Assembly (NCBI GenBank): GCA_001818315.1
Contig: MHKF01000012.1
Span: forward strand, 23,976-87,975
DNA length: 64,000 nt
DNA from: Candidatus Kerfeldbacteria bacterium RIFCSPLOWO2_02_FULL_42_19
GTDB taxonomy: Bacteria > Patescibacteriota > Patescibacteriia > HO2-48-17
Direction of reading: 5' to 3'
Under the pieces are notes generated by a model, which did not search any database, had not been told where the DNA came from, and saw only the letters and a program-made list of their open reading frames with translations. This document shows positions 1 to 61,884 of this stretch, one piece after another (positions within the stretch are counted from its first letter, which is position 1; every line of letters starts with the position of its first letter). The translations under genes were made by a program, and so were the position numbers.

Positions 1-840
1 CAAGTGGATACGCTTGGGAATAATAGCAACGCTACTGCGGTGCGGATCAAGTTTAATAAACAAGATCGTATTCTGGCTGCGCCGGCTATTTCCGGTGGTC
101 CGCAAGTGCGTGTGTTTAATGAAAAAGGAAAACTTCTGCATCAATTTTTTGCCTATAGTGAAAGTTTTCGCGGTGGTGTTCGATTAGCCTCTTGTGATCT
201 TGACGGCAACGGCAATGCTGAAGTTATTACTGCACCTGGTCTCGGCGGCGGCCCGCAAGTGCGGGTATTCGATATGAATGGGAAAACGAAATTTACTCAA
301 GGATTTTTCGCCTACCCGAGTAATTTTAAGGGCGGTGTTTTTGTAGCTTGCGGTGACCTCGACGGCGACGGTCGTGCCGAGATTATTACTGGCACTGGCG
401 CAGGCGGCGGCCCGCAAGTGCGCGTGTTCGATAAGTCAGGGAATACGCGTTTTACTCCCGGTTTCTTTCCATACGATAGTAAGTTCCGCGGAGGCGTACG
501 TGTTGCTTCGGGAGATGTGAATGGTGATGGTATCGCAGAAATTATTACTGCACCTGGTCCTGGCGGCGGCCCACAGGTACGTCTTTTTGATCGCACTGGA
601 AAACCTGTGCTGGTAGCCGGTGGGTTTATGGCTTATGCGAGTAGTTTTAAGGGTGGCGTGAATCTTGCGATCGGCGATATTGATCAGGATGGAGCAGAGG
701 AGATCATCACCGGGGTTGGTGCTTCTGGATCACCACTGGTGCGAGCGTTTCATTACAAGGGTACGACTATCGAAAGTGAATTTTCTGCTTTTGACCAATC
801 CTTTAAGGGTGGTATTGTTGTTGCTGGAGGTTTTGAATAA
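1..840 (+). CDS. FG-GAP/VCBS-type beta-propeller repeat protein, 5' truncated by the window edge
   Basis: The ORF runs from the window edge. Four to five tandem ~60-aa repeats carry D-x-D-x-DG-x-AE-IITG-G-GGGPQVRVF motifs (integrin-alpha FG-GAP-like Ca-binding blades). The same module occurs at the C-terminus of the 49770..54305 protein. Confidence 0.7.
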   Translation, partial: QVDTLGNNSNATAVRIKFNKQDRILAAPAISGGPQVRVFNEKGKLLHQFFAYSESFRGGVRLASCDLDGNGNAEVITAPGLGGGPQVRVFDMNGKTKFTQGFFAYPSNFKGGVFVACGDLDGDGRAEIITGTGAGGGPQVRVFDKSGNTRFTPGFFPYDSKFRGGVRVASGDVNGDGIAEIITAPGPGGGPQVRLFDRTGKPVLVAGGFMAYASSFKGGVNLAIGDIDQDGAEEIITGVGASGSPLVRAFHYKGTTIESEFSAFDQSFKGGIVVAGGFE

Positions 841-1639: not shown

Positions 1640-2248
1640 ATGAAAATTCCAAAACAAGCACGATGTGTATTTCGTGGAGTCATTTTCGACGTGTATCAAT
1701 GGAAGCAGCGATTGTACGACGGTTCGACGGTTACTTTCGAACGTCTCAAGCGGCCGGACACTGTGCAGGTTATTGCAACCAGCGGCAAAAAAATTTTTAT
1801 TTCTGATGAAAAACAACCTGATCGTCCACGGTTTTTTTCCCTTTTTGGTGGCCGAATAGAAGTTGGTGAAACGCCTCTCGAAGCCGCGAAAAGGGAATTT
1901 TTTGAAGAATCGGGCATGGAATCGCCTGATTGGGAGTTTGTAAAATATTACGAACCCGTCGTAAAAATTGATTGGAAGATTCATTTGTTCATTGCGCGTC
2001 ATTGTGAACAAAAATCACGGCAGCAGTTAGAGGCAGGGGAAAGGATTCGCGTGCGAGCTGTTTCATTTCAGCAATTTTTCAATATTGTATTTTCTTCTAA
2101 ATTTCGTGGGGTAGAATTTTCCTATGACATGTTAAAAATGCGAACATTGCAACGGCGAGAATTTGAGGCGTTTCGCAGACATTTATTTGATGGGACTGTC
2201 GCCGAATACCGTTTTTTATACAATGTGCAAAACAAAAGAGGAGGATGA
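1640..2248 (+). CDS. NUDIX hydrolase
   Basis: Nudix box GGRIEVGETPLEAAKREFFEESGM (G-x5-E-x7-REUxEExGU). A possible promoter TTGCAA-18-TATAGA lies upstream (~1546..1575). The last ~19 codons and the stop lie inside repeat sequence (see 2192..2349). Confidence 0.8.
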   Translation: MKIPKQARCVFRGVIFDVYQWKQRLYDGSTVTFERLKRPDTVQVIATSGKKIFISDEKQPDRPRFFSLFGGRIEVGETPLEAAKREFFEESGMESPDWEFVKYYEPVVKIDWKIHLFIARHCEQKSRQQLEAGERIRVRAVSFQQFFNIVFSSKFRGVEFSYDMLKMRTLQRREFEAFRRHLFDGTVAEYRFLYNVQNKRGG

Positions 2249-2349
2249 TTCTCCTTTCTCAGCACACTGTGCAGTGTGAGTGTTTCGAAAGCGAGGGCTA
2301 TCCTCTTCTTTTGTTTTGTGTCTTGAACAAGAAAACATTCGGTGACCGT
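2192..2349. repeat. composite interspersed repeat: family-A left terminal inverted repeat (GGGACTGTCGCCGAATACC, 2192-2210), family-B hairpin element (2229-2318), and an A-right-TIR-like sequence CATTCGGTGACCG (2337-2349)
   Basis: Direct sequence matches to the elements at 54395..54616, 24671..24812, 20878..21041 and 36427..36588. The B core is CTCAGCACACTGTGCAGTGTGAGTGTTTCGAAAG. Confidence 0.7.
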
Positions 2350-2464
2350 TGATTCATCTGCTTGACTCTTGTGTGATTTCACAGTAGTTTGAGTATATTT
2401 GTCAGCTCATTTGCGTCGAAATATTTTTTTTCTGGTATAGAACCGGAAGGAAAGGAGGAAAAAC

Positions 2465-3345: not shown

Positions 3346-4671
3346 ATGGTTTTTAAAGAATTATTTAAAAAAATAATTCCTGCAACAATTTTGAGCGCCT
3401 ATCATTTGATGCTTGCATGGGTTGCTGCAGTTTGGTATCGATTTCCTTCTCGTAGGCTTATTGTTATTGGCGTAACCGGTACGAAAGGAAAATCGACGAC
3501 GAGTTTTTTTATTACTAAACTTCTCGAAACACTCGGTGAATCTGTCGGGCTCTCGGGCACGATTATGTTTAAGGTTGGACGTCGCGAATGGCCGAATACT
3601 CTCAAGATGACGATGCCAGGTCGATTTCGTTTGCAGCGATTATTGCGGGATATGGTTCGTGCGGGTTGCGCGTTCGCTGTGATCGAGACAACTTCAGAAG
3701 GTATTGCTCAGCACCGGCATCGCGGCATCGACTATGACGTGCTTGTTTTTACAAATCTTTCTCCAGAGCATATCGAGCGACACGGGAGTTTTGAAGCGTA
3801 TAAGCGTGCTAAACAATCGTTGTTTCAGAATTTGCATCGTAGTTTTCATAAAAATCTTTTTTTCCATAAGCAAGTTCGGCGTATTCTTAAAGTTATCGTT
3901 GTGAATCGTGATGATCCTCATTTCGCTGGTTTTGTGCAATTTTCTGCTGATCAACACGTCGCTGTGAGTCTCTGTGATACAGCTGCTGCAATTTTTGCTC
4001 GCGATGTTATTTCAAATGACTCCGGCAATACATTTACCGTGGCCGATCAACATTTTACTTTGTCGTTACTTGGAGATTTTAATGTCATGAATGCTTTACT
4101 CACATTAGCCGTCGGTGCCGTGTTTGATTTTTCTTTAGAGCATATGAGGTTGGCGCTTGCGAAACTCCCGCAGATTCCAGGGCGTATGCAGCGCATTGAT
4201 GGAGGTCAGGATTTTACGGTGATTGTTGATTACGCTCATGAACCCAAAAGTATGGAAGCGTTGTTTCGTAATGCAAAGCGTCTACGAAAAAATCCGCAGA
4301 GTCGCATTATTACTCTGATAAGTTCTACCGGCGGTGGTCGAGATGTTGCACGTCGACCTATGCTCGGTAAACTCGCTGGTGGGTATGCGGATATTGTGAT
4401 TGTGACTGACGAAGATCCGTATGATGAGGATCCGAATGTTATTATGCAAGCGGTTGCAAGGGGTGTTGTCGAAGCTGGAAAAATACTCGGTCAAACTTTT
4501 TTCATTTTTCAAGATCGCAAGGAAGCTATTTTCGAAGCCATTCGTTTGGCTCGTAGTGGTGATGTAGTGCTTTTACCCGCAAAAGGCTCGGAACGAGTCA
4601 TGGCCGTAGCACATAATACACATATTCCGTGGAGCGACGAAGCTATCGCTCGAGAAGCTTTGAAAAAGTAG
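3346..4671 (+). CDS. murE: MurE-like Mur ligase (UDP-MurNAc-tripeptide synthetase family) that lacks the N-terminal UDP-binding domain and carries an N-terminal TM helix instead
   Basis: P-loop GVTGTKGKSTT. It matches E. coli MurE segment by segment: TMPGRFRLQRLLRDMVRAGC and FTNLSPEHIERHGSFEAYKRAK align with LQRLLAEMVDAGC and [22 protein letters not shown]. The C-terminal LLPAKGSE...SD motif is also MurE-like. The DNPR position reads DEDPY. An in-frame stop at 3322 rules out an upstream extension. Confidence 0.65.
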   Translation: MVFKELFKKIIPATILSAYHLMLAWVAAVWYRFPSRRLIVIGVTGTKGKSTTSFFITKLLETLGESVGLSGTIMFKVGRREWPNTLKMTMPGRFRLQRLLRDMVRAGCAFAVIETTSEGIAQHRHRGIDYDVLVFTNLSPEHIERHGSFEAYKRAKQSLFQNLHRSFHKNLFFHKQVRRILKVIVVNRDDPHFAGFVQFSADQHVAVSLCDTAAAIFARDVISNDSGNTFTVADQHFTLSLLGDFNVMNALLTLAVGAVFDFSLEHMRLALAKLPQIPGRMQRIDGGQDFTVIVDYAHEPKSMEALFRNAKRLRKNPQSRIITLISSTGGGRDVARRPMLGKLAGGYADIVIVTDEDPYDEDPNVIMQAVARGVVEAGKILGQTFFIFQDRKEAIFEAIRLARSGDVVLLPAKGSERVMAVAHNTHIPWSDEAIAREALKK

Positions 4672-4740
4672 TTTTTCTTTCATCATAGCTTCTTTTTACC
4701 CTTTCCGCTTCGTACTTGACATTTTTATTCCCGTTATTTC

Positions 4741-4946: not shown

Positions 4947-8303
<3,357 letters not shown>

Positions 8304-8309
8304 CTATTC

Positions 8310-11300
8310 TTGAGACTTATGTTGGAAAACATTACACTTCGTGTTCAAGATTTTAAAGCGATTCGTTTGAAACTCGCGTCACCTGACGAGATACTTGATT
8401 GGTCTCATGGCGAAGTAACTCGACCTGAGACAATTAATTATCGCACACAACGGCCAGAACGTGATGGATTGTTTTGTGAACGTATTTTTGGTCCATCGAA
8501 AGATTGGGAGTGTTATTGTGGAAAGTATAAGAGGATTCGTTATAAGGGTATTGTTTGTGATAAGTGTGGTGTGGAAGTTACGCGTTCTGTTGTGCGACGT
8601 GAGCGCATGGGTCATATTCAACTTGCGGCGCCTGTGTCGCATATTTGGTTTCTCCGCGGTGTCCCTTCAAAAATTGGTTTTATTCTTGATCTCTCTGTAC
8701 AAGCGCTCGAAAAAGTTATCTATTTCGCGAATTTTATTATCACAAATGTTGATGAGACGCTGAAGGAAAAAACCCTTGTCCAGATTTATGATGAAGCCAA
8801 GTCAAAGCGACACAGTATCCAAGGTGAATATCAACAAACAGTGCAAGATATTGAAAAACGCAAAAAAGCAGCTTTACATCAAGCAACTGGAACGCAGCGC
8901 AAGACTCTTACGGAGGAATTTGAACAGGAGCTTATCAACGCTGCCGTTATGCGAGATGAAAAATTGAAGGATTTGGACACGGCTGTAGATCTTGCGAAGA
9001 AAGAACTTAAAAATCTTGAGTCTCTGCAAATTTTATCTGAAAGTGAATATCAAGATCTTTCTTTAAAGTATGGTCATGTATTTGAGGCTAGTATTGGCGC
9101 TGAAGCCATCCGGAAACTTTTGGAACACATTGATTTAGATAAGCTTACTCACGAACTTGCAGAAGCAATAATTGAGAGCGCTAAAAATCAAAAGCGTCGT
9201 CTTGTGCGTCGTTTGAAGTTTGTGCGTAGTCTCAGATTGAATAATATTCGTCCGGATTGGATGATTTTGACGATGTTGCCTGTGATTCCTCCCGATCTTC
9301 GTCCTATGGTGCAACTTGATGGCGGTCGTTTTGCTGCTTCCGATTTGAATGATTTATATCGCCGTGTGATTAATAGGAATAATCGTCTGAAGAGACTTCA
9401 GGAACTTAACGCGCCGGAAGTGATCCAGCGTAATGAAAAGCGTATGCTTCAAGAAGCCGTTGATGCACTCATTGATAACAGCGCCCGTCATGGGAAAACC
9501 GTTACAGCCTCTACAGGTCAAAAGCGGCAATTAAAATCACTTGCGGATATGCTCAAAGGCAAACAAGGTCGTTTTCGCCAGAATCTCCTTGGGAAGCGCG
9601 TAGACTATTCTGGGCGTTCAGTCATTGTTGTTGGTCCTCATTTGAAGCTCCATCAGTGTGGACTGCCGAAGACCATGGCGTTGGAACTTTTTAAGCCTTT
9701 TGTGATGAGTGAATTAATCAAACGCGAAATTGTTTACAATGTTCGGAGCGCAAATCGTTTTATTGAATCTGGCGACGGTCGTATTTGGGACATACTGGAA
9801 GAGATTACGAAGAAATCCTATGTCCTCCTGAATCGTGCTCCGACACTCCATCGATTGGGTATTCAAGCTTTTCAACCGATACTTATTGAGGGTAAGGCTA
9901 TTCAGATCCATCCACTTGTTTGTACGGCTTTTAATGCAGATTTTGATGGTGATCAAATGGCAGTGCATATTCCGCTGACAGCAGAAGCTCAAAAGGAAGC
10001 CGCTCAAATTATGCTTTCGTCAAAGAATTTGTTGAAGCCGGCAACGGGTGATCCGGTTGTTTCCCCGAGCCAAGATTTAGTTCTTGGTGTGTATTACATG
10101 ACAACATTTGCGCAGAAAGAACGTGCACATGTTTTTGAGAGTCCCATAGAGGCGTTGAATATGTATGCCCTGGGGCATATCGGTATTCAAACCCGCATCC
10201 GAGTTCGTATAGATCAGAAAATTATTGAAGATGACACACAATCTGATCTGAAGAAAGGCATTGTCCTCACTTCAGTTGGGAGAATACTTTTCAATCAAGT
10301 TTTACCAGAGAGCATGCAGTTTATCAATAAAACGCTTGATAAGAAAGGACTCCGTCAGGTGATTGCGGAATGTTTGCGTCTGCACGGACGTGAACGTACA
10401 GTGGAACTTTTGGATGCTATTAAGATGGCGAGTCTGACCTACTTAACGAGTTCTGGTCTGAGTTGGGGTATGGACGATTTGATGATCCCAAAGGAAAAAA
10501 CAGATATTGTGAGCGCAGCTGAGAAAGAAGTTGATGAGTTGCAGTCGCAGTATGACGCTGGTCTTTTGACCGACGAGGAGCGACATGCTCGTATTGTTGC
10601 AGTATGGACTCGTGTAAAGAATGACATCACCGACCTCAGTCAGAAAACGCTCGATCCATATGGTTCTGTGTATGCTATGATTAATTCCGGATCACGAGGT
10701 TCTTGGGGCCAAACGACGCAGATGATGGGTATGAAGGGACTTGTTGTTAGTCCTTCAGGTAGTACTATCGAATTGCCTGTGAAGCGGAGTTTTAAAGAAG
10801 GTTTTGATGTATTGGAATATTTTATTTCGACACACGGCGCTCGGAAAGGTTTGACGGATATTGCTTTACGTACTGCGAATGCAGGGTATCTTACTCGGCG
10901 TTTGGTGGATGTGGCACAAGATGTTGTGGTTATACAAGAAGATTGCGGCGATCGCGTTGGAATTACATGGCGGAAAGAGGAAGTCGGTGAAATGGGTCCT
11001 GCACTGGAAGATCGCGTGATTGGGCGTGTACTTGCTAAACCCATTCTTCATCCGAAGACAAAAAAAGAAGTATTGAAGGCCGGTGAACTCGTAACTTCTG
11101 AGCATAGTAAAATATTGAAGAAATTAGGTTTGAAAGAGGTTACGTTTCGCTCTGTTTTAACCTGCAAGACGTTACGAGGAATTTGTCAGCAATGTTATGG
11201 TTACGATTTAGGCCACAATACCTTAGTTGCACTCGGTACCGCTGTGGGTATTATTGCTGCACAAAGTATTGGTGAACCGGGCACCCAGTTGACTATGAGA

Positions 11301-20877: not shown

Positions 20878-21041
20878 GGGGTCTGTCGCCGAATACGCTT
20901 TCGTCTGTGAAATCGTAGAATTTCGTGACAGAACCGCTGAATAAATTTTGAGGTTTATATGGAATATAAGCTGAAAAATTTTGAAGCGATTCTGGCCGAA
21001 ATGCTACGATTGCAACAGAAATGGTATTCGGCGACAGACCC
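20878..21041. mobile_element. family-A MITE-like element, copy 1 (164 bp, no coding capacity)
   Basis: Terminal inverted repeats GGGTCTGTCGCCGAATAC at 20878-20895 and 21024-21041. It is ~90% identical over its full length to the reverse complement of 36427..36588. Both copies are flanked by TTTTA/TTTA(A). Confidence 0.8.
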
Positions 21042-21123
21042 TTTATACAAACACAACCCCCGAAATAGTGGGGATTGTGTGATTACAATCTCAGAGCCCT
21101 GTGTTTTGGTTTTTAAGAGATTT

Positions 21124-22827
<1,704 letters not shown>

Positions 22828-24624: not shown

Positions 24625-24670
24625 GAGCTGGAGTACCTCATGAATCTCCTACGATTTTTTGCTCATTTTT

Positions 24671-24769
24671 AACTATAGAAAAAGAGGAGGAAGACTTCTC
24701 CTTTCTCAGCACACTGTGCAGTGTCAGTGCTTCGAAAGCGAGAGTCATTCCCCTCTTTTTCTATAGTTA
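24671..24769. repeat. family-B hairpin element, copy 2 (99 bp) with a perfect 17-bp terminal inverted repeat AACTATAGAAAAAGAGG
   Basis: Core TCTCAGCACACTGTGCAGTGTCAGTGCTTCGAAAGCGAGAG. The arms covary relative to the other copies. Confidence 0.8.
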
Positions 24770-24778
24770 AAACTCATG

Positions 24779-24812
24779 TTTCACAGACGAAAGCGTATTC
24801 GGCGCCAGACCC
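24779..24812. repeat. solo family-A TIR fragment (34 bp)
   Basis: TTTCACAGACGAAAGCGTATTCGGCGCCAGACCC is the reverse complement of the first 34 bp of element 20878..21041 with one mismatch. Confidence 0.75.
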
Positions 24813-36426: not shown

Positions 36427-36588
36427 GGGTCTGTCGCCGAATACCATTTCTGCTGCAATCGTAGAATTTCGGTCAGCATCGTTTCAAAATTTTTCGGCTT
36501 ATATTCCATATAAACCTCAAAATTTATTCAGCGATTCTGTCACGAAATTCTACGATTTCGTGACGAAAGCGTATTCGGCGACAGACCC
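36427..36588. mobile_element. family-A MITE-like element, copy 2 (162 bp, inverted relative to copy 1)
   Basis: TIRs AAGGGTCTGTCGCCGAATAC / GTATTCGGCGACAGACCCTT. Flanked by TTTAA on both sides. Confidence 0.8.
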
Positions 36589-36852
36589 TTTAAACAGGAA
36601 GACAGCCGAACTATGACTGGCTGTCTTGGGGAACAATGAATGTACTGGTTGTATTTCGCTGTTAGTTTTATTTTAGCGCCGAAGTTTTCTGGTTTCAAGC
36701 TTCGTTGGTCTACCGATCAGGGAGCGATGATTGAAAGAGTGCTGTTGAAGTCGCAAGCCACTATTTCTTTTCCATTTGAATCCTCCTTGATTCAGTTTGG
36801 TTGTTGGTTGCAAAAATCGCAATAGAACTACGAAAGACATATAAGCACGAGC

Positions 36853-49769: not shown

Positions 49770-52700
49770 ATGAGTATGCCTTTTCGTGCGTCGGGTAATG
49801 CCCGAGGTATCACTTTAGTACCTTCATTGCGTGCGACGATCGCTTTCCTTGCCGCGACGATCGTACTGTTTGCTATGTTTATCGTGCTGCTTTTTGCTTT
49901 TCCAGTTGATGCAGCGGGAAAAAATAAACCTACGCAGCCAATCGATGTCGCTGATAATGATAGTCGTATTGAAGACGTAACAGCCGTTGCTGCCGATACT
50001 ACACCGAGTGCAACCACCAGTTATACAGTTTCAATTCAGCTTACTGAGAGCATTCAACAAGGTGGCGAACTCCGTGTTGATTTTCAACTGACAGCCGGCT
50101 GTCCTCCACAAGCCGATTGGGCTACGCAGTGTCGTTTTGGTTTTACCGATGATGCTACTGTTTCCGGACTACCTGCCGGAGCCGTGTCAAATATTGCCGA
50201 CGTCAATGCTGATTCTTCACAGTTTGGTATTCGTGCAGAATCGGGAGCGATTGCGGCTGGCACGTTGGCTTTGACTGTTTCGGGTGTGAAAAATCCGAGC
50301 GCAGGAGGACTTGCGCGCGTGATGGTTGACAGTGTAGTACCTAGTGATGAACCGGATTGTCCATCTTCTGACGATAATGGCGATGACGATGGGGAGGAAG
50401 ATGAACATCAAGAATCAGAAGTGAATAAAGCTGATGATCAGGAAATGTGTTTTCCAGATATGACTGCTTCCGATCCTATCTATCTCGGCACTATGGCAGT
50501 TGTTGGTGCAGTAACATACAAAGGTGGAGATCTCGATGGTCAGCCAGTTTCTTATGGTTGGGTCAATGCCGGCACAAAGGATTTTTGGACAGGAAGTTCT
50601 ACAGATCGATTCGGAGCTTATGCGATTCCACTGCCGCTTCCGCAGGGGAAATATCAAATTCGTGCAGAAGTACCGATGGGCATCACCGGTTATATCCCAG
50701 CAGTCAAAGAAATTGAGTATAAAGGTACGACAATCACCCAGGATTTAACTCTTGGCATTGCAGTCAAAACTTTGAGTGGTACCGTTAAGTACGCTGATGG
50801 CAATGCAGTGGCTGATGCCTCGGTGTGGATTAATAGTCGTACTAATTTTATGGGTACTGGCGCAGAGGTGAATGAAAAAGGGGAATACAGTGCTTCTCTG
50901 GATTGTGGTGATTACGATATGAATTTGGGTCCAAAATGGGATCCTGAAACTAATCAACCTTCCAGTGTGGATTGGATGTATAATCAACCACCAAAGCAGG
51001 TTTCTTTTGCCTGCGATGGTCAACAGCAAACACAGACCGTCGATTTTACTGTGCAAAAGTCTGATTCAAAGGTCATTGGTACGCTTGTTGACAACAATGG
51101 CAAACCAGCTGATGGTCATGTCGAGCTTCGCACCAAGGAAGGGAGTGGAAACGGGAGTCACACCGATCAAAAAGGGAAGTTTTCCATTCCTATTACTGCC
51201 GGTACGTATGAAATGAATGTGTGGACACAACAGCAGGATTTATATTTTACAGGGCAAAAAGTTGAAGTTCCAACAGGTAAGACTGTGGATGTTGGGACGC
51301 TTCAGTTATCAAAACGCGATGCGCAAATCACTGGTACCGTCACAGACTCAAACGGTACTCCTTTGAGCGGAATGAATGTGAATGCGTGGATGCCGGGAGC
51401 TCAAGGTTGGTCAAATGCGCAGACCGATGACAAGGGTCAGTACACTCTCTATGTTTTCGTTGGTGAATGGGAAGTTGGAATTCACTCAGGAGAAGGTGAA
51501 GACAGTAGTGATCAAAATTACATTCAACCACAGAATCAACGTGTGAAGATTGAAAAGTCCGGGCAGACTGTTAGTGATATCAACTTTAAACTGGAGGCAG
51601 CGGATGCAACGATTGCAGTGCAGGTTGTGGATCAGGATAATAACACGATGAGTGATTTGTACGGATGGGCGTTCTGCCATCTTGAGGGTCAATTTGGACC
51701 AGGAAATGAATTTGGTGCTTCCGTGCAACGCGGTCAGGCCAGTATCCCTGTTCGCGGCGGAGAGACCTATGTTTGCGGTATGGGTTTTCCTCCGGAGATG
51801 CCATTTTCTTTAGAAGAAGAACAAAAAGTTCAGATTAACTCTGGCGAAAGTAAAGATGTCACGATGCGTTTGGTTGAGAATGATGCTGTTATTCATGTCA
51901 TTGTTAAAGATCAAGATGGTAAACAGTTGAAGAATGTGGAGGGATTTGTCTTTGCCTTTACCCCAGAAGGATTTAGTCATTTTGGTGAACCGTTGAAACC
52001 CGATGGTACAGCACATTTGACCGTGCGTGGGGGAAAGAAATACGTTGTTGGTTATGATTTCCGTGAAAATTCAGGATATCTCAATTCTCATCCCGACTTC
52101 AAACCCTTTGAGGTTCCTGAGGACTCTACGGTGACTCGTGTACTGACGGCTTATAAAGCAGACGCGAGTATTAGTGGTACAGTGACTGACCCGGATGGAA
52201 AACCAATGTTTGCATGGGTTGGTGCGAGTAACCGCGCTTCACTTGAAGACAAAGCGCAACTTGATACCGGTGTAGAAGGTGCACAAGTCATTGACACCGG
52301 CACTCAAACCGGTCCAGATGGAAAATATAAACTTCTCCTTGTTTCTGGTGAATTCGAAGTTTTTGCCGGTGGAGAATTTGGTGGGAAAAAAGATTTACTC
52401 CCTCCACAACTTTCAAGCGTTACGGTGAAAACTGGTGATGCACTGACATTGGACATGCAATTTCGTTCAGCCGATGCAACTGTCTCTGGTGCTGTGACGT
52501 ATGCTGATTCCGGTAAAACTGTTCCGATTGGTTTCTGCTGGGCATGGTCAGATGAGCAAGGATTTTCCGGGAATATGTTGAGCAATGGAAAATACACTAT
52601 CCCGCTTGTGGAGGGCACCTGGTTTGTGGGTTGTGATTCCTTTAATCCAAACAAAGGTGAAGGAGAGTTTTATCGCGCACAAGAAGCGATAGTGACAGTG

Positions 52701-54305
52701 ACGAAGGGTGACACTATCACGCAAGATTTTCAACTCAGTAAGGCCTTATTCGAGATTCCTGATGGTGTATCGGAGACCTTTAGTTGTACAACTTTGAAAG
52801 AGATGCGACTTCCTGACGGCACAATTGTGAAGATTCCCGCGAATGCTTTGTGCACAGACGGTGATGTGACCGTGACCGCTGATCCGGCGACTGATGTATT
52901 TCGTACCAATGACGCAAAGCTTCTTATGTACGCATGGAATCTTGAAGCTTTACAGGACGGTCAACTTATCGAGAGCTTTAATTCCAATGTGACTATTATT
53001 ATTCCGTATAGCCAAGAAGTTGTTGATGAGGAAGGTATTGATGAATCGAATCTGCTGGCAAAATTCTTCGATGATTCTACGAGTACCTGGCAGACACCGG
53101 ACAACGTCACAGTGGATACTGAAGCTAACTTGGTCACCGCACAAGTAGATCACTTTACAGAGTTTGCAGTGACCAATAGCGGTGATACGAAGACAAGTAG
53201 TGAAGTGAAAGAAACAACACAAAAGAAACAACGTCATGATATTGTGATTACTCCGTGGTCCAAGGGTGGTCCGCAGGTTGCGGTGTGGAATAAAGATGGG
53301 AAACTGATTACGACGTGGTTTGCTTATGGACAGGATCTGCGCATGGGAATCACGACCTTTAGTGGCGATCTTGATGGCAATGGCGTACCAGAAGTGATTA
53401 CGATTCCTGGTGAAGGCTTTAGTTCGCAGGTTCGTGTTTTTGACGGCACAAATGGAAAAATTTTGAGTCAGTTCTTTGCCTATGATACCGCTTTCAAGAA
53501 AGGTATCAATCTTGCAGTGTATGATCTCGATGGCGATGGAGATCAAGAAATTATTACGGTTCCAGCCAAGGACGCGACTGCTGATGTAAAGATTTTCGAT
53601 CGCAATGGTACGCTTGTCATGCGGTTCAACGCGTATGGGTCGACCTTCACGAAGGGCGCTTTAGTAGCTGCGATGGATTTAGATGGAGATAAACTCGGTG
53701 AAGTTGTTACAGCGCCAGTTGATGGTTCAGGGCAGATTCGTATCTGGTCAGCCAGTAAGGATGATGGTCCTGTTGCTCAATTCGATGCGTACGGCGCTGG
53801 ATATAATAAAGGTATTGCGTCTCTCGTATTGAATGATCTCGATGGAGATGGAAAGGGTGAAATTATCACAACTCCACGGGAGGGTAGTTCACAAGTTCGC
53901 ATCTTTAATCGTTCTGGGAAAGTCATCACGCAGTTCAATGCCTATGGTGAGGGCTTTAAGGGTGGTTCACGTATTGCAGTTGGAGATACTGATGGCGATG
54001 GCAAGCAAGACCTTGTAGCTTTGCCGAATGCGAATGGTTCTGCGCAGGCTCGTATCTTTACAAAGGATGGAGCGGTGAAATCGCAGTTCTTCGCATACCC
54101 GTCGGAGACGACGCGTCCAGGAAGATTCTCAGCAATGCTTGCTGATTTGGATGCCAATGGCAAAGATGAAGTGATCTTCGGCACGGGTGTGGATTTGGGA
54201 CCAAACGTGCGCATTTTTGATCAGAACGGTAAGACCATTGCGCAATTTATGGCATTGCATCCTGGCTTCCGCGGCGGTATGAATGTGAATGCCGTAGCGA
54301 GATAG
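49770..54305 (+). CDS. giant (1511 aa) surface protein with N-terminal TM/signal, ~8 carboxypeptidase-regulatory-like beta-sandwich repeats and a C-terminal FG-GAP beta-propeller
   Basis: Repeats of the form GTVTDSNGTPLSGMNVNAW / GTLVDNNGKPADGHVELR. The C-terminal blades (GGPQVAVWN...DLDGNGVPEVITIPGEG..SQVRVFD) are the same module as ORF 1..840. Confidence 0.7.
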   Translation: MSMPFRASGNARGITLVPSLRATIAFLAATIVLFAMFIVLLFAFPVDAAGKNKPTQPIDVADNDSRIEDVTAVAADTTPSATTSYTVSIQLTESIQQGGELRVDFQLTAGCPPQADWATQCRFGFTDDATVSGLPAGAVSNIADVNADSSQFGIRAESGAIAAGTLALTVSGVKNPSAGGLARVMVDSVVPSDEPDCPSSDDNGDDDGEEDEHQESEVNKADDQEMCFPDMTASDPIYLGTMAVVGAVTYKGGDLDGQPVSYGWVNAGTKDFWTGSSTDRFGAYAIPLPLPQGKYQIRAEVPMGITGYIPAVKEIEYKGTTITQDLTLGIAVKTLSGTVKYADGNAVADASVWINSRTNFMGTGAEVNEKGEYSASLDCGDYDMNLGPKWDPETNQPSSVDWMYNQPPKQVSFACDGQQQTQTVDFTVQKSDSKVIGTLVDNNGKPADGHVELRTKEGSGNGSHTDQKGKFSIPITAGTYEMNVWTQQQDLYFTGQKVEVPTGKTVDVGTLQLSKRDAQITGTVTDSNGTPLSGMNVNAWMPGAQGWSNAQTDDKGQYTLYVFVGEWEVGIHSGEGEDSSDQNYIQPQNQRVKIEKSGQTVSDINFKLEAADATIAVQVVDQDNNTMSDLYGWAFCHLEGQFGPGNEFGASVQRGQASIPVRGGETYVCGMGFPPEMPFSLEEEQKVQINSGESKDVTMRLVENDAVIHVIVKDQDGKQLKNVEGFVFAFTPEGFSHFGEPLKPDGTAHLTVRGGKKYVVGYDFRENSGYLNSHPDFKPFEVPEDSTVTRVLTAYKADASISGTVTDPDGKPMFAWVGASNRASLEDKAQLDTGVEGAQVIDTGTQTGPDGKYKLLLVSGEFEVFAGGEFGGKKDLLPPQLSSVTVKTGDALTLDMQFRSADATVSGAVTYADSGKTVPIGFCWAWSDEQGFSGNMLSNGKYTIPLVEGTWFVGCDSFNPNKGEGEFYRAQEAIVTVTKGDTITQDFQLSKALFEIPDGVSETFSCTTLKEMRLPDGTIVKIPANALCTDGDVTVTADPATDVFRTNDAKLLMYAWNLEALQDGQLIESFNSNVTIIIPYSQEVVDEEGIDESNLLAKFFDDSTSTWQTPDNVTVDTEANLVTAQVDHFTEFAVTNSGDTKTSSEVKETTQKKQRHDIVITPWSKGGPQVAVWNKDGKLITTWFAYGQDLRMGITTFSGDLDGNGVPEVITIPGEGFSSQVRVFDGTNGKILSQFFAYDTAFKKGINLAVYDLDGDGDQEIITVPAKDATADVKIFDRNGTLVMRFNAYGSTFTKGALVAAMDLDGDKLGEVVTAPVDGSGQIRIWSASKDDGPVAQFDAYGAGYNKGIASLVLNDLDGDGKGEIITTPREGSSQVRIFNRSGKVITQFNAYGEGFKGGSRIAVGDTDGDGKQDLVALPNANGSAQARIFTKDGAVKSQFFAYPSETTRPGRFSAMLADLDANGKDEVIFGTGVDLGPNVRIFDQNGKTIAQFMALHPGFRGGMNVNAVAR

Positions 54306-54361: not shown

Positions 54362-54393
54362 GCCCCGGTTTTTTTCGGGGTCTTCTTGTATAC
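54362..54393 (+). terminator. putative rho-independent terminator of the giant gene
   Basis: GGCCCCGG-TTTTTTT-CGGGGTC hairpin followed by a T-rich tract. Confidence 0.4.
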
Positions 54394-54394
54394 T

Positions 54395-54616
54395 GGGACT
54401 GTCGCCGAATACGCTTTCTTCTGTGAAAAATATATTTTAACTTGATAATTCCGCGCTAGCTTACTGCGCGGAGGTTCATTATGGAAAAAGAGGATGCAGA
54501 CTCTCGCTTTCGAAGCACTAACACTGCACTGTGTGCTGAGAAAGGAGAGTCTGCATCCTCTTTTTCCATAATGAAAACTCATTTCGCACATCCGAAAGTG
54601 CATTCGGCGACAGTGC
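54395..54616. repeat. composite element: family-A left TIR (54395-54428), a spacer with the AACTTGATAATTCCGCGC motif, a nested family-B hairpin element (54477-54573), and an A-right-TIR-like CATTCGGCGACAGTG (54601-54615)
   Basis: GGGACTGTCGCCGAATACGCTTTCTTCTGTGAAA matches the first 34 bp of 20878..21041. The B element here has TIR CATTATGGAAAAAGAGG / CCTCTTTTTCCATAATG. Confidence 0.75.
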
Positions 54617-54618
54617 TA

Positions 54619-57570
54619 TTATTGAGGAACAAGTTGCACCTTATTTTCTTCGCGCCTTTGTAGTTGCTGAACGAGTTGTGTGATTTTTTCGAGCCAGTGA
54701 TTTCCAAGTTGGGATTGCTTCGTCCGCACATGAAAGTTTGTCACATATTCCCAGGGTTCTCTGTAAAGTCCTTTTGGTATTACTTCGCTTGTTTTGATGA
54801 TGATTTTAAAATCCTGGGGTTTCGTGTCAAGTATTGGAACGGAGTCAATCTCAGTCAGTATACTTTGTTCTGCGAGTATTTTTATTTTGATGAGTTGTAA
54901 TAGGTTGTGTAAGGTTGTTGGTAAAGGAACATGCGTTGAAAGTTTTTGCTTTAAGTCGTTGAATGCATCTACAGATTCGATTTTTGCAAGTTTTCGATAT
55001 AATTCCAAGCGTTTTTCTTCGTTGGGTTCGTATTCCAATGGGATGTATGCTTCGAGCGGCAAATCGATGTGTACATCTCTTTTTACAGCGACACTTTTTG
55101 AATGTTGTAATTCATCGACCGCAAATTTCATGAGTCGCAGATAAAGATGAAGTCCGATGCGTACGGCGTGTCCATGTTGTTCTTTTCCGAGAATATTACC
55201 GATCCCGCGAATTTCCATATCACGTTTGGCGATGTCCAGGCCAGCTCCGAGTTCGCTTGCTTCTTCGAGTGCTGTAAGTCGCTCGTGAGCTGTTTCACTC
55301 AATTTGTTTCGGTGCGTTAAAAAGTAGGCAAAGGCTTGACGATTGCCTCTGCCGATGCGTCCCCGTAGTTGATGGAGTTGGGCGAGTCCAAAGTTTTCTG
55401 CCTCGTCCACAATGAGCGTATTCACATTTGGAAGATCGATGCCATTTTCGATAATCGTGGAACAGAGCAGTATATCGATTGATCCTTGATCAAAAACATG
55501 CATGACGTTTGCAAGTGTCGTATCAGGTAATTGACCGTGCGCAATGCCGATGTGCGCTTTGGGGAGCAGCGTCTGGATTTCATATTTGCGTTTTTCGATG
55601 CTCGGAATATGGTTGTGAAGAAAATAAACTTGTCCTTTACGGTTGAGTTCGAAAGCGAGCGCTTTTTGGATCACTGCATCACTCGTATGAGCAACATGAG
55701 TTTGGATTGCTTTACGGTTTGACGGTGGAGTTTCGAGGTAACTTATCGATTTAATGCCGGAAAGGGCAAGATACAGGGTCCGCGGAATGGGTGTTGCAGA
55801 GAGTGTCAAAACGTGCACGCCGGTTTTGAATGCAATGAGTTTTTCTTTTTGTTTGACGCCAAAGCGTTGTTCTTCATCGATAATCACAAGTCCGAGTTTT
55901 GGAAACTGAATGTCTTTTCCAAGGAGCGTGTGCGTTGCGATGATCACGTCAATGAGCCCGTCTTTGAGCGCTCGTTGTGTTTGTTGTTTTTCTTTTGATT
56001 TTTTCCATCTCGTTAAAAGCGCTCCTCGTATTGGTAGACCCTTGGTTCGTTCTGTGAATGTGTCGAAGTGTTGTTGTGCTAAGATCGTTGTCGGAGCAAG
56101 TAATGCTACTTGATATCCGTTGAGTGCTGCGTGCACTGCTGCACGCAGAGCGATTTCTGTTTTTCCGAATCCAACATCGCCACACAGAAGGTGATCCATA
56201 GGAGTTTCTGTGGAAAGTTCCTGAACAATTTTTTTGAGCGCCGTTTTTTGATCTTGTGTCAGTTCATAGGCGAATGTTTCTTCGAGTATTGTTTCCTCTG
56301 ATTGTATTGTGAATGTGCTGGTTTTCGCGTTCGCACGTTTCGCATGCTGATCCAGGAGTTCTTTGGCAATGTGTTCTGTGCTTTTTTTTACAATATGCAG
56401 AGTTTCCTGCCAGGTATTTCCAGAGAGTGAATGGAGTTTAGGATGTTCTGTACCTACGTAGCGTTCGATGCGATCCAGTTGATCAACGGGTACGAAGAGT
56501 TTATCTTTTCCAGCGTACTGAATTGCAACGAAGTCTCGATTTTTTCCGTTGATGTACATACGTGTGAGACCGATGTATTTACCGATGCCGTGATAGATAT
56601 GCACAACAAAACACCCAAGCGTGAGTTGGTCGAGGGTAATTTTTGTTTTTGTTTTTCGGAGCGAAGTTTGTTTTTCTGTTTTTCCAAAAAGATGGAGATC
56701 GGTGAGGAAAAGTACCCTGTGTTTTGGATCAATGAAGCCTTTGTCTTGCGCAAGGTTGAAAGTGTTCTGTATATTTTCCGGAAGTATCGTGATTTTCGGG
56801 AATGTTTCTTTGGGGAAGAGGGTTTGTATTTTGTGGGGATGATCTGTAGTAATAAAAATTTGAAAGTCGCCGTATTTTCGCGCATCTTTTTGTATGCGGG
56901 TTACGTCGCTGTGATACCACTGCGGTATTTTGAATCTCACATTATTTAGATTTTCCAAAAGAGTGTGATGCGGAAAATAGTTTTGAATAGTCCACGGTGT
57001 TTGTTTTTCTGATATTAAGTTGATAGGTAATTTGAGTTTCGAAATTTTTTTGAGTACTGCTTTTGTATTGTGATGGATACGTGTGATCTGTTCTATATTA
57101 TTTTCTTCAAACTGTATGCGATAGAGATCAGTCTCATTCGGAAGCCAGACTTCTAGAATTTCGCCTTTGCCCGCGAAGGTAAGGGGGGTATTGCAAGTTT
57201 TTTCATGTGTGAATCCTTGGCGTATAAGAAAACTCGCAATGTGTCTGGGTTCGTATATGTTTTGTTTTATTAAGGTGAGTGATGATTCTTTGAGAGTTTG
57301 TGGATTTTTGAGCGTAAGCGTTTCGATGTCTTTTATAGCGATAATAATATTCGCTTCGTGAGGTAGAAATAGGAGTGTTTGTTGCGAATATTGTGGTACT
57401 GTTTTTGCAAGTGTTGCGACTGAAGCGTTTTTTGTAAAACGCATCACGAGTTCGGCAAGCGTTTTTTGCTCTTCCGTATTTTTTGAAAAATACAAAACAC
57501 CCTTGTGTGATGTAAGAGGGATGTGTGCAAGCGTGTATGCCTTTGCTGGAAGTCCGAGTATTGCTGGCAT
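54619..57570 (-). CDS. mfd: transcription-repair coupling factor Mfd
   Basis: RecG-like SF2 motor (GDVGFGKTE, DEEQRFGV) and a C-terminal TRCF domain. At 983 aa the N-terminal UvrB-homology module is shorter than in E. coli. Confidence 0.9.
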   Translation of the reverse strand: MPAILGLPAKAYTLAHIPLTSHKGVLYFSKNTEEQKTLAELVMRFTKNASVATLAKTVPQYSQQTLLFLPHEANIIIAIKDIETLTLKNPQTLKESSLTLIKQNIYEPRHIASFLIRQGFTHEKTCNTPLTFAGKGEILEVWLPNETDLYRIQFEENNIEQITRIHHNTKAVLKKISKLKLPINLISEKQTPWTIQNYFPHHTLLENLNNVRFKIPQWYHSDVTRIQKDARKYGDFQIFITTDHPHKIQTLFPKETFPKITILPENIQNTFNLAQDKGFIDPKHRVLFLTDLHLFGKTEKQTSLRKTKTKITLDQLTLGCFVVHIYHGIGKYIGLTRMYINGKNRDFVAIQYAGKDKLFVPVDQLDRIERYVGTEHPKLHSLSGNTWQETLHIVKKSTEHIAKELLDQHAKRANAKTSTFTIQSEETILEETFAYELTQDQKTALKKIVQELSTETPMDHLLCGDVGFGKTEIALRAAVHAALNGYQVALLAPTTILAQQHFDTFTERTKGLPIRGALLTRWKKSKEKQQTQRALKDGLIDVIIATHTLLGKDIQFPKLGLVIIDEEQRFGVKQKEKLIAFKTGVHVLTLSATPIPRTLYLALSGIKSISYLETPPSNRKAIQTHVAHTSDAVIQKALAFELNRKGQVYFLHNHIPSIEKRKYEIQTLLPKAHIGIAHGQLPDTTLANVMHVFDQGSIDILLCSTIIENGIDLPNVNTLIVDEAENFGLAQLHQLRGRIGRGNRQAFAYFLTHRNKLSETAHERLTALEEASELGAGLDIAKRDMEIRGIGNILGKEQHGHAVRIGLHLYLRLMKFAVDELQHSKSVAVKRDVHIDLPLEAYIPLEYEPNEEKRLELYRKLAKIESVDAFNDLKQKLSTHVPLPTTLHNLLQLIKIKILAEQSILTEIDSVPILDTKPQDFKIIIKTSEVIPKGLYREPWEYVTNFHVRTKQSQLGNHWLEKITQLVQQLQRREENKVQLVPQ

Positions 57571-57652
57571 GTTTTGAGTATACCATGAATCCTTATCAAA
57601 GAAATTTTTTTGCTTCTCAATATTTTCATCGCAGCAAGCAAGTTTATAGAAT

Positions 57653-57735
57653 GAAAAGAGGAGGAGACTCTATCTTTCGAAGCACTAACAATGCACAGTG
57701 TGCTGAGACAGTATAGAGTCTCACTCCTCTTTGTC
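57653..57735. repeat. family-B hairpin element, copy 4
   Basis: Core CTTTCGAAGCACTAACAATGCACAGTGTGCTGAGACAG flanked by complementary arms GAAAAGAGGAGGAGACTCTAT / ATAGAGTCTCACTCCTCTTTGTC. Confidence 0.75.
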
Positions 57736-57841
57736 TGTACAATCAAAACTCGCTTTTTAGAGGCGAAGCGTATGTGATGGAATTTAAAAAATGCAAAACC
57801 TTCCACAGAAAGTGTGGAAGGTACGGTGTGCGATGGAGAGA

Positions 57842-59124: not shown

Positions 59125-60126
59125 ATGCGAGTTCCTCATTCGTCCAAACCGCGGGTTCTTAGTGGCATTCAACCTACAAACGTGCTGCATATTGGGAATT
59201 ATCTTGGTGCGATCAAGCAATGGGTTGATATGCAGAAAGAGTATGAATGTTTTTTTTGTATTGTCGACCTTCATGCGATTACTGTTCAACAAAAGTCCAA
59301 AAGCCTTCATGAAAATATCCGCAGACTCGCTGCGTTTTATATCGCGTGCGGAATTGATCCTGCGGTTTCCACTATTTTTGTTCAATCGCGAGTATCAGGA
59401 CACGCTGAACTCGCTTGGATATTAAATACGCTGGTGAAAGTTTCGGAGCTTGAGCGTATGACGCAATATAAAGATAAATCCAATCAACATCGGACGAATA
59501 TTAATGCCGGTCTTCTTGATTACCCGGTACTTATGGCGGCTGACATCCTGCTTTATGATACCGATGTCGTGCCGGTGGGGGAGGATCAATCACAACATGT
59601 TGAACTTACATGTACGTTAGCACGGCGATTGAATACCCAGTTTGGAAATGTTTTGAAAGTTCCAAAATTGAAGTTGTGTGTGGAAACAGCGCGTATTGCA
59701 GCACTGGATGATCCTTTGAAAAAGATGAGTAAGAGCGCATCGAGTGCTATGAATTATATTGCTCTTGACGATGCCTCCAAAACCATACAGCAAAAGTTTC
59801 AAAAAGCAGTGACAGACTCTGGTCGGACGATTGTTTTTGATCCGAAGCGACCCGGGCTATATAATCTTTTAACGATTTATAAAGCTTTTACCGATGAATC
59901 CGAACAGGCGATTGAAGAACACTTTCGTGGGAATGGGTATGCAGCACTTAAACAAGAAGTTGCTCGCGTCGTGATTCAGGCGCTTGAACCTATTCAAGAT
60001 CGCTATCATGCGTTACTTGATCGTCGATCTGAACTTGAACAGATACTTGACGCAGGAACGAAGCATGCTCATGCGATCGCGCGGGTTACGCTTGAAAGAG
60101 TTTTTCGTGCTCTTGGTCTTGGGTAA
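59125..60126 (+). CDS. trpS: tryptophan--tRNA ligase
   Basis: HIGH-type motif TNVLHIGNYLG and KMSKS motif KKMSKS; 333 aa. A possible extended -10 TGATAGAAT lies ~40 nt upstream. Confidence 0.95.
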   Translation: MRVPHSSKPRVLSGIQPTNVLHIGNYLGAIKQWVDMQKEYECFFCIVDLHAITVQQKSKSLHENIRRLAAFYIACGIDPAVSTIFVQSRVSGHAELAWILNTLVKVSELERMTQYKDKSNQHRTNINAGLLDYPVLMAADILLYDTDVVPVGEDQSQHVELTCTLARRLNTQFGNVLKVPKLKLCVETARIAALDDPLKKMSKSASSAMNYIALDDASKTIQQKFQKAVTDSGRTIVFDPKRPGLYNLLTIYKAFTDESEQAIEEHFRGNGYAALKQEVARVVIQALEPIQDRYHALLDRRSELEQILDAGTKHAHAIARVTLERVFRALGLG

Positions 60127-60486
60127 AAAAAAGAGCCTATACTTTTGCACTCTTATAGAAATGCGGAGGAGGGCACGATACCGCGAGACTGGTTGTGGCG
60201 AACCAGTTTCGTTAGCGTGCAGCTTGAAAGCTGAGCGCATACATTATAGGCTGTGTGTATTATAGTTGTTTGTAAATTCTCGTCAAGTTAGCCATACTTT
60301 GTTGACGATTTTTGTGTTTATTGGTAACTTTAAACTTGATAATTCCGTGCGCTCTCGGCGCAGGGAGACTGGATCCGCAGATTTGTAAAGATCACGGTAT
60401 GGTATATGCTGTAGTTCTGGGAATGTCGTTCCTGATTTTCCTTTGATTAACAAGAGTTTCAATCTTTCGTATTCCGGAAACGATTT

Positions 60487-61884
60487 GTGACATTACAAGA
60501 GCTTCGCATACAACATCCTTGTTTTCACTATCGGTCGTTCGCATATGCCCTGAAGGGCGAGATACTTCAGCTTGATTTTGTATTTGAACTTGAACCTGAT
60601 ATTATCTTTCAGCCACGGACTTTCATACATGGTCTTGATATCACGCGTTTTTCTACGCTTCGTCCGCAGCTATTGAATCATTTTATTTTTCATCTCGGTC
60701 TGCTTGAATTATTGAGTTATTGGAAGACAGCGTGTTCTCCTGTGATTGAGATCGCTTCCGGTGTTTTGGATGAAGCGCAGATTGCTTGGTGGCAGGATTT
60801 ATTTTTACAGGGTCTTGGTGAGTTTTTCTATGTCAATCAAATTGATTATACCGCTCCTGACTTTGTGCGTTTTAAGGTTCTGCCTCACACACGGGCGTAT
60901 ACCGAAAGTGATAGTACTCCACAATGTTTTCAAGGGAGTCTTGATGCCAAACGGATACTTGTGCCTGTTGGGGGAGGTCGTGACTCTATCGTTACATTAG
61001 AGTTTCTGAAAAAGACTCCGCATGAACTTTCTGCTTTTCTGATCAATCCAACACAAGCGCAACGTGATGTAGTGCAAATCAGTGAATTGACCCGTCAGAT
61101 TATTGTTGAGCGTAGATTAGATTCGAAACTTTTTGATTTGAACGCTGCTGGATACTTGAACGGTCATGTGCCCATTTCTGCGTATTATGCGTTCTATGCG
61201 TGTTTTGTCGCAGTTCTTTTAGGATACAAATTCGTCTCGATTTCGCAGGAACGTAGTTCGAACGAAGGAACAGTCGATTTTTATGGCTTGTCTGTGAATC
61301 ATCAATATTCGAAGACATTTGAATTTGAAGAGAAATTTCGTAAGTATTTCACCTCTGTGTTAGCTTCTGATTTGGAATATTTTAGTTTGTTACGCCCGTT
61401 GTATTCGGTGCAAATTTCCAAGATTTTTGCGAATACGCCAAAATACTTTCCTGTTTTCCGCAGTTGCAATCGCGGACAAAAGACGAATACATGGTGTGGG
61501 GTTTGTGCGAAATGCTTGTTTACATACGCATCGTTGTTTCCTTTTGTATCGGAATCAGTTTTGCAGAGTATTTTCGGGGCCGACATATTATCGAAGTCCG
61601 AGCTTCGTGAGACCGCATTAGAGCTCATCGGTAAGCGCCCAGCGAAACCCTTTGAATGCGTCGGTACGTTTGAGGAAAATAAAGTTGTTTTCTTTTTGTG
61701 TATGCAAAAATTTCAAAAGTCGTATGCAGATAAGCCGTTGCCATCGGTACTTGGCGTCGTTTCTGCGGCACTTGTGGAAGAAACCGATATGGCGCAGCGT
61801 GCGCAGGCGCTTCTGAGTTCCTGGAATACGCAACATCATGTGCCAGAGCAGTTTGCCGAGCTCCTCCATGCTTTTGTTGAATGA
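60487..61884 (+). CDS. PP-loop-like ATP pyrophosphatase-fold protein with a C-terminal Cys cluster, uncharacterised
   Basis: ILVPVGGGRDSIVTLEF resembles the SGGxDS PP-loop. The C-terminus carries CNRGQKTNTWCGVCAKC. Putative GTG start; the gene ends 40 nt upstream of murD. Confidence 0.5.
   Translation: MTLQELRIQHPCFHYRSFAYALKGEILQLDFVFELEPDIIFQPRTFIHGLDITRFSTLRPQLLNHFIFHLGLLELLSYWKTACSPVIEIASGVLDEAQIAWWQDLFLQGLGEFFYVNQIDYTAPDFVRFKVLPHTRAYTESDSTPQCFQGSLDAKRILVPVGGGRDSIVTLEFLKKTPHELSAFLINPTQAQRDVVQISELTRQIIVERRLDSKLFDLNAAGYLNGHVPISAYYAFYACFVAVLLGYKFVSISQERSSNEGTVDFYGLSVNHQYSKTFEFEEKFRKYFTSVLASDLEYFSLLRPLYSVQISKIFANTPKYFPVFRSCNRGQKTNTWCGVCAKCLFTYASLFPFVSESVLQSIFGADILSKSELRETALELIGKRPAKPFECVGTFEENKVVFFLCMQKFQKSYADKPLPSVLGVVSAALVEETDMAQRAQALLSSWNTQHHVPEQFAELLHAFVE

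Follow-up and report, generated by a model that had tools for sequence, protein, structure and literature searches.

Repeats of two kinds, termed here A and B, occur in a 64,000-nucleotide stretch of the genome of Candidatus Kerfeldbacteria bacterium RIFCSPLOWO2_02_FULL_42_19 (the window). The A repeat is a MITE of 161-163 bp with 18-bp terminal inverted repeats (TIRs; consensus GGGTCTGTCGCCGAATAC), and the B repeat comprises a long hairpin. At 54395-54617, next to the mfd gene, a B hairpin lies between A-type ends, and the question raised by this locus is whether one mobile element has been inserted into another or whether the composite is an element in its own right. The second answer is favored here: the sequence at 54395-54617 is very probably a single non-autonomous DNA transposon (MITE) of a B-core subfamily, and not an element within an element.

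Organization of the Element at 54395

The original prediction described a left A-type TIR with A-internal sequence, a B hairpin, and an A-type right end at 54395-54616, all of which are present (Table 1). Over 34 nt, made up of the left TIR and the 16 subterminal nt of A type that follow it, the element is 94% identical to the A element at 20879-20912. Within the core, two arms of 31 nt each (54475-54505 and 54545-54575) are 100% complementary and are separated by 39 nt, and the whole 222-nt element folds as single-stranded DNA with -73.9 kcal/mol (z = -15). The right end lies 1-2 nt before the mfd stop codon (54619-54621).

Table 1. Coordinates of the element at 54395, of the other A-type and B-type copies, and of associated features. 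Positions are those of the window unless a locus (L) is named.
Feature	Position	Strand	Basis or remark
Intrinsic-terminator-like hairpin, native, 3' of FG-GAP protein gene, outside the MITE	54363-54380	+	terminator scan
Left TIR of B-type MITE, GGGACTGTCGCCGAATAC	54395-54412	+	1 mismatch to superfamily consensus GGGTCTGTCGCCGAATAC
Subterminal type-1 arm (GCTTTCTTCTGTGAAA...), common to the left end of A elements	54413-54441	+	identity to A, arm typing
Extra 33-nt segment, this copy only: TTGATAATTCC, GC hairpin, then GGAGG	54442-54474	+	
B core, long hairpin	54475-54575	+	covariance model, 109 bits
Right subterminal arm (AAACTCATTTCGCACATCCGAAAGT), inverted counterpart of type-1 arm	54576-54599	+	arm typing
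Right TIR, degraded, AGCACTGTCGCCGAATGC	54600-54617	-	4/18 mismatches; tip GGG changed to AGC
Second TTTWAACTTGATAATTCCGYGC copy with GC hairpin, between trpS and murL-like gene	60329-60372	+	
B-type MITE, core forward on minus strand, 157-161 bp	2192-2352	-	covariance model, 88.7 bits
B-type MITE with single A end (24779-24812), other end lost	24667-24812	-	covariance model
Decayed B-type copy: core, then type-1 arm remnant (AAAACTCGCTTTTTAGAGGCGAAGCGTAT), no recognizable TIR	57647-57775	+	covariance model, 69.4 bits
A-type MITE, 163 bp	20879-21041	+	flanks TTTAG/TTTAT
A-type MITE, 162 bp	36427-36588	-	perfect duplication TTTAA/TTTAA
B-type element, 183 bp	L001:17179-17361		perfect duplication TTTAT/TTTAT
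B-type element, 174 bp	L121:2498-2671		
B-type element, 178 bp	L007:6101-6278		
Complete B-type element, 163 bp	L011:5813-5975		flanks CTTAT/TTTAT

Between the left arm and the core this copy carries an additional 33 nt, missing from 11 of the 11 other B-type copies, in which a GC hairpin with stems at 54450-54456 and 54466-54472 folds with -15.4 kcal/mol. The motif TTTWAACTTGATAATTCCGYGC occurs twice in the window, at 54439 and at 60333 (60333-60350), against 0.16 copies expected, and both copies run into a GC-rich hairpin followed by GGAG. Its recurrence near 60329 had been predicted and holds, for a motif of 22 nt rather than the 24 nt first given. The accompanying description of a compensatory change in the hairpin was loose: an extra T-A pair and a G/G mismatch distinguish the stems, and the loops are not alike. 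No copy of the motif AACTTGATAATTCC was found in any locus from other organisms, and Rfam gave no match at 60100-60500. With two copies only, the segment may have arisen as a small insertion or through template switching.

The flanks of the element, ATACT and ATTAT, form no recognizable duplication, and the copy is present and identical in every same-species assembly compared across the site (L001-L004). Because its right tip is mutated, a clean duplication is absent, and a secondary 33-nt insert has been acquired, this copy is old and probably immobile. The convergent gene upstream has its own terminator (54363-54380), which the scan calls on the minus strand, the stem being palindromic and the plus-strand tail having 4 T in 8 bases. 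Since the B stem adjoins the mfd stop codon and is the sole hairpin seen 3' of mfd, the B hairpin with its T-run may at present serve as the mfd terminator.

Other Copies in the Same Genome

The part of this genome that was read, roughly 86 kb, contains three A-type and six B-type copies. The A copies at 20879-21041 and 36427-36588 lie in opposite orientation and are 94% identical, and the third (L001:18378-18539) is 100% identical to that at 36427-36588. Two of the B-type copies lie just beyond the window (L001:17179-17361 and L121:2498-2671), and a fourth B hairpin within it, at 57647-57738, had been overlooked in the original prediction and is followed by a decayed A arm. The layout predicted at 2192-2349 is present, though the right TIR is degraded and the A-like subterminal part, with just 68% identity to the left end at 20879, resembles the other A arm; the flanks read TTGAT/TTGAT if the right TIR is truncated and TTGAT/TTCAT if it is full length. 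A B element followed by a solo A end, predicted at 24671-24812, was likewise confirmed (24667-24812), the A end at 24779-24812 being 97% complementary to 20879-20912. Because B cores within this organism are 77-92% identical and A-type copies 94-100%, the B subfamily is the older one here and is decaying.

The neighboring genes are ordinary (groEL, mfd, trpS, Mur ligases, and FG-GAP surface proteins; the TrpS gene spans 59125-60126), and the host genome, a metagenome-derived one from the CPR (Patescibacteria), has a G+C content of about 43%. Distances of 10-20 bp separate MITE ends from the terminator-like hairpins of adjacent genes (54363-54380, 21057-21073, 36603-36630, and L121:2686-2716), and T-rich terminator tails may be preferred AT-rich targets of the MITE. 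The FG-GAP/VCBS-repeat surface proteins (window 4-840 and 49770-54305) contain internal repeats of about 150 bp. The near-identical MAGs represented by L121 and L122 are offset by 153 bp within an FG-GAP/VCBS repeat region at about 9320-9570, which fits a difference in repeat-copy number.

The B Hairpin and Its Possible Function

An alignment of 11 B cores gives a 36-pair stem that is 91% paired, with double changes at 21 pairs; none of 500 shuffles was as good, and no slid register came close. The apical part of about 28 nt within the 39-nt central part is nearly invariant among copies. The arms can be perfect within a copy while copies differ from one another by 8-28%, and G-T pairs, at about 10 of 45 stem mismatches, are not enriched. 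Such complementarity could result from DNA-level template switching from arm to arm or from selection on the hairpin. Because template switching in a DNA palindrome gives the same pattern, the covariation is not taken as proof of an RNA, and the swapping of arm types from one side of an element to the other (described below) points to arm-to-arm copying. Rfam gave no match in the window at the gathering threshold, and over the composite at 54395 only chance-level ones (E > 0.2).

It has to be considered whether the B core is kept for the use of the host, with mobility secondary, a proposal that is compatible with the element being a MITE. The core could act as a bidirectional intrinsic terminator (A-run, long stem, and T-run on both strands) or as a protein- or RNA-binding hairpin via its apical 28 nt. 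The many compensated stem changes and the near invariance of the apical GAAGCACTAACANTGCACAGTGTGCTGA across organisms speak for such a role, as do arms that start GAAAAAGAGG and finish CCTCTTTTTC, which places a T-run after the stem on either strand. By coordinates, five of the six B-type copies of this organism lie 1-130 nt 3' of a stop codon, among them the copy that adjoins mfd. Several neighboring genes nevertheless have a terminator of their own beside the MITE (54363-54380; L121:2686-2716), and the core has no consistent orientation with respect to genes, being same sense at 24667 and antisense at 57647. The lack of G-T enrichment fits a DNA-level palindrome better than RNA-level selection, the copies decay in both TIRs and core, Rfam has no match, and the terminator scan gives B no score, its loop being beyond the limit of the scan. 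A function selected in the host is considered unlikely.

Distribution and Ends of the B Core

The conserved center of B (CACNNACANTGCACNGTGTGCTGAG) gave five matches in JGI metagenome contigs and none in 185,579 species genomes. The JGI contigs have no other DNA in common with the window, and in them B again lies between A-type ends: besides the elements in L007 and L011 (Table 1), in L008 one TIR of the copy is clear and the other degraded, and the copy in L010, where the contig begins inside the element, has a good TIR at its end. When about 0.69 Mb of CPR loci were searched with a profile HMM (nhmmer) and a covariance model, none of the other A-carrying MAGs gave a B core. The match at L007:1537-1613 was rejected as a divergent B core; it is an unrelated near-perfect long palindrome (L007:1527-1613; CTGTCTCTTCTGTGGTATATATTTTTTCAAGACAC...), recognized by the covariance model through structure alone.

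At least one TIR with no more than 4/18 mismatches accompanies 8 of the 12 known B cores, at a TIR-to-core distance of 18-34 nt (70 nt at 54395 owing to the insert); three of the other four have decayed arms only, and one is cut by a contig end. Chance pairing of B with A ends is excluded by a control in which only 0.6% of 5000 random 110-nt windows held a TIR match with up to 5 mismatches, most of these being real elements.

Shared Ends with Different Cores

Evidence on how B came to lie between A ends is found in the length and makeup of the composites. B-type elements measure 157-183 bp (163-183 bp for complete units of A end, B core, and A end), and A elements 161-163 bp. Because insertion of a hairpin of about 100 bp into an A element would give about 260 bp and B-type elements are about as long as A, the B core replaces that of A. 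The A-like part of the composites is confined to the outermost 34-50 nt of either side, and they lack the A core; A-type and B-type elements share, at either end, the TIR and as much as about 34 nt, while the central 85 nt or so differ. The subterminal arms of A elements are of two types, type 1 (GCTTTCGTCTGTGAAA) and type 2 (CATTTCTGTTGCAAT), and around B these are combined as type 1/type 1 (54395 and the L001 copy termed L001b), type 1/type 2 (L007, L008, and L121), or type-2-like on both sides (2192 and L011). Where both sides carry the same arm type, the flanks cannot be the halves of a split A element.

The junctions lead to the same conclusion. They are common to copies and organisms, including the linker between arm and core (…ATTTTGATCATAG / CTATGATCAAAAT…). 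Neither inner ends nor a consistent direct repeat was found flanking B within the elements. Duplications instead flank whole B-type units (TTTAT/TTTAT at L001:17179-17361, TTGAT at 2192, and CTTAT/TTTAT in L011), and the same architecture recurs in L007, L008, L010, and L011, contigs that otherwise have no DNA in common with the window. It is concluded with considerable confidence that B is the hairpin core of a sister subfamily carrying A ends, and not a separate element inserted in A. The alternative offered in the original prediction, that A ends mobilize at least two cargos, is supported by complete units of 163-183 bp that recur in unrelated contigs, and also within the same organism, with the same junctions and their own 5-bp duplications.

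A mechanism can be proposed in which a transposase supplied in trans would bind the shared ends and insert the unit through a 5-bp staggered cut, so that any sequence between two A-type ends could be moved. A pair of A-type ends would have gained the B core once, and the product would then have spread as a unit. A whole element of either type forms a long imperfect palindrome.

Two other histories would leave the same parts side by side. Each composite could be a separate chimera of an A element and an unrelated hairpin locus, formed by recombination or template switching and not belonging to a propagating family. The variation of arm types among B copies indicates that sequence has been exchanged between arms, and the 54395 copy has gained its 33-nt segment related to 60333, both of which would suit this account. 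The linker and TIR-to-core distance shared across copies and organisms argue for one origin followed by copying, however, and duplications around complete copies argue for transposition of the whole unit, so that independent chimeras are improbable. Nor is there much to commend B as an independent mobile hairpin that prefers A elements as its target, a history we regard as very improbable: B is a self-contained palindrome that A ends adjoin in every copy, and direct ATGAG on both sides of the palindrome at 24667-24812 (TTTTAACTATAG...CTATAGTTAAAA) can be read as a 5-bp duplication, but that repeat is seen in one truncated copy only, the corresponding flanks of the other copies being inverted rather than direct; the composites are no longer than plain A, their A core is missing rather than split, intact B without A arms or A-type ends was not found in any collection scanned, and the same junctions in different organisms indicate that the unit spread as a whole. 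A complete outer element, inner termini, and an inner duplication, which would together mark a nested insertion, were thus not found in these composites, and the preferential insertion of B into A suggested by the original prediction is not upheld.

No informative empty site was found: the element is there in every strain sampled, L001-L006 and L122 (strain variants) do not differ at the elements, and the best Mfd homologue outside the species is 53% identical.

The A-End Superfamily in Patescibacteria

The A-type ends that define the 54395 element are widely distributed. A scan with the pattern GGGNNTGTCGCCGAATRCNNTTT, using one genome per species, found at least 106 loci. Among the matches listed, nearly all loci belong to Patescibacteria MAGs (Kerfeld-, Magasanik-, Falkow-, and Azambacteria and several other bins), a few are labelled Gammaproteobacteria, and four in other bacteria resemble chance matches. 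The MAGs labelled as uncultured Gammaproteobacteria (L015, L023, L027, L057, L065, L104, and L114) contain typical MITE copies with duplications; either these labels are wrong or the superfamily extends past Patescibacteria.

The loci among the matches listed contain 306 TIR matches, and TIR positions 1-18 are 69-100% conserved (293 ends). A perfect 5-bp duplication borders 51 of the 90 paired elements with both flanks, and one with a single mismatch a further 15, as against none in a shifted control; the duplications are 92% A+T. The elements are therefore DNA transposons that make a 5-bp staggered cut, and with TIRs at two ends, small size, multiple copies, and no internal transposase gene (37-235 bp) they are MITEs. 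Paired-end elements have lengths of 37, 44, 53, 75, 85, 98, 107, 129, 131, about 161 (53 copies), 178, and 235 bp, the same TIRs enclosing many different cores across Patescibacteria.

The 161-163-bp A form has one architecture across lineages, a single long hairpin in which 61 pairs are predicted and 32 of these show compensated changes. Across class-level CPR lineages (L012-L117, and 20879-21041 and 36427-36588 of the window) this architecture comprises the 18-bp TIR, an asymmetric bubble of about 14 nt, long covarying arms, a conserved internal loop (TTTTGAGG / GCYGAAAAA), and a short, variable hairpin at the apex. That the length is fixed and the loop conserved suggests a constraint beyond the TIRs. 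A conserved peptide encoded in A (ORF 20959-21216, with a start behind GAGG within the element) was rejected, as Magasanikbacteria copies have a stop codon in frame.

At the other extreme are 17 elements of 37 bp (e.g., L014:3041-3077, L053:1316-1352, and L074:5571-5607), consisting of two 18-bp TIRs and one base and mostly bordered by a 5-bp duplication of their own. These could transpose as such or could arise by deletion in place between direct CCGAATAC repeats of the 161-bp form. Abutting TIRs in L046, L050, and L070 were rejected as clean insertions of one MITE in another, being truncated fragments.

One MAG, JBBTVV01 (H43-bin112_1), has 136 TIR matches in the 159 kb sampled. Dozens of its contigs start or stop within a TIR (e.g., L019, L033, L045, L051, L060, and L089), and the repeat is among the main reasons why the assembly of this genome is broken. 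Between the window and loci L018, L043, and L112 of Kerfeldbacteria RIFCSPHIGHO2_12_FULL_48_17, A elements share 88-93% DNA identity, whereas the Mfd proteins are 53% identical, which points to horizontal spread of the MITE or to strong selection. From their RIF-prefixed names, both Kerfeldbacteria MAGs presumably come from the Rifle aquifer study.

Search for a Transposase and Likeness to Known Elements

About 0.7 Mb of loci, with TIR pairs 0.3-8 kb apart and large ORFs beside TIRs, yielded no transposase bounded by these TIRs, and for this reason mobilization in trans is inferred. The ORFs that recurrently adjoin TIRs encode a T2SS ATPase, ClpB, and a large serine recombinase; the ten largest scanned (927-1198 aa) encode DnaE, RpoB, SecA, UvrA, and similar proteins, and two others encode ClpB. 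Viral contigs gave only two chance TIR matches. Two loci were rejected as a parent element: L104, which reads as a CsoR-like/copper-ATPase locus, and a TIR pair 1548 bp apart in L088, which is a MITE split by an IS110-family element. In the latter (L088:3195-4742; Falkowbacteria MFFY01000052) the transposase gene (3557-4681, minus strand; Pfam DEDD_Tnp_IS110 and Transposase_20) lies within a split MITE of about 160 bp, and a large serine recombinase gene (5025-6695) adjoins. Relatives of IS110 are known to target repeats, but L088 is a single case.

The tip of the TIR resembles the inverted repeat of Tn3, GGGGTCTGACGC; the latter sequence lies about 110 nt 3' of blaTEM and occurs in more than 5000 plasmids. 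The TIR begins GGG, and when its first 11 nt (GGGTCTGTCGC) are aligned with positions 2-12 of the Tn3 repeat, 10 of 11 positions agree. Past position 12 there is no similarity (14/37 overall, the comparison being with the Tn3 repeat only), and the inner TAAG motif is absent. No Tn3-family transposase (DDE_Tnp_Tn3) was found in the loci examined. TIMEs, which are MITEs derived from Tn3, make a 5-bp (rarely 6-bp) AT-rich target duplication (PMC4133298), and the duplications here are alike in length and composition. The strictly conserved TIR is 18 bp here as opposed to 38 bp in TIMEs, and at 262 bp TIMEs are longer than the present elements. Judged from their ends and duplications, which are Tn3-like, the elements would work like TIMEs, with putative membership of the Tn3 family.

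Other bacterial MITEs, as the term is defined in PMC4133298, include Correia/CREE of Neisseria, RUP of Streptococcus, and MITEAba12. The present elements resemble them in being small, multicopy, intergenic, and without ORFs, in having TIRs and a short duplication, in folding as hairpins, and in forming subfamilies with common ends and different cores. They differ in their host group, Patescibacteria/CPR with genomes of about 1 Mb, in a duplication of 5 bp rather than TA, in that no autonomous partner was found, and in a length of 161-163 bp and an internal architecture that are conserved across class-level lineages.

REP/BIME repeats are likewise short intergenic palindromes with compensated stem changes and are often near the 3' ends of genes. 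They are mobilized by RAYT (IS200/IS605-like) transposases and have neither DDE-type TIRs nor target duplications. The elements described here differ in their perfect 5-bp duplications (51/90), no RAYT gene was seen in the loci, and the elements are not assigned to this group.

Significance

A full-text literature search found no description of MITEs in CPR/Patescibacteria, the genomes of which are very small. MITE subfamilies with common ends and different cores are well known, and for this reason the composite at 54395 is ordinary once read correctly: it has the normal structure of a subfamily, and as a kind of element it is unremarkable, though its host group is unusual. What appears to be new is the superfamily itself, a TIR-defined MITE superfamily widespread in Patescibacteria and apparently so far undescribed. 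This single superfamily is found in Kerfeld-, Magasanik-, Falkow-, and Azambacteria and several other lineages, with dozens of copies in some MAGs, and its elements are conserved in nucleotide sequence above expectation from the divergence of the host genomes. A more far-reaching proposal, which we hold to be doubtful, is that the cores (B with its 28-nt apex and A with its TTTTGAGG / GCYGAAAAA loop) are selected modules, portable bidirectional terminators or binding sites for host or transposase proteins, spread horizontally among CPR bacteria; if true, it would explain element identity of about 90% between genomes with 53% identical Mfd. The 18-bp TIR provides a defined bait for the missing transposase, and the MITE marks both the break points of assemblies and horizontal exchange among co-resident CPR bacteria.
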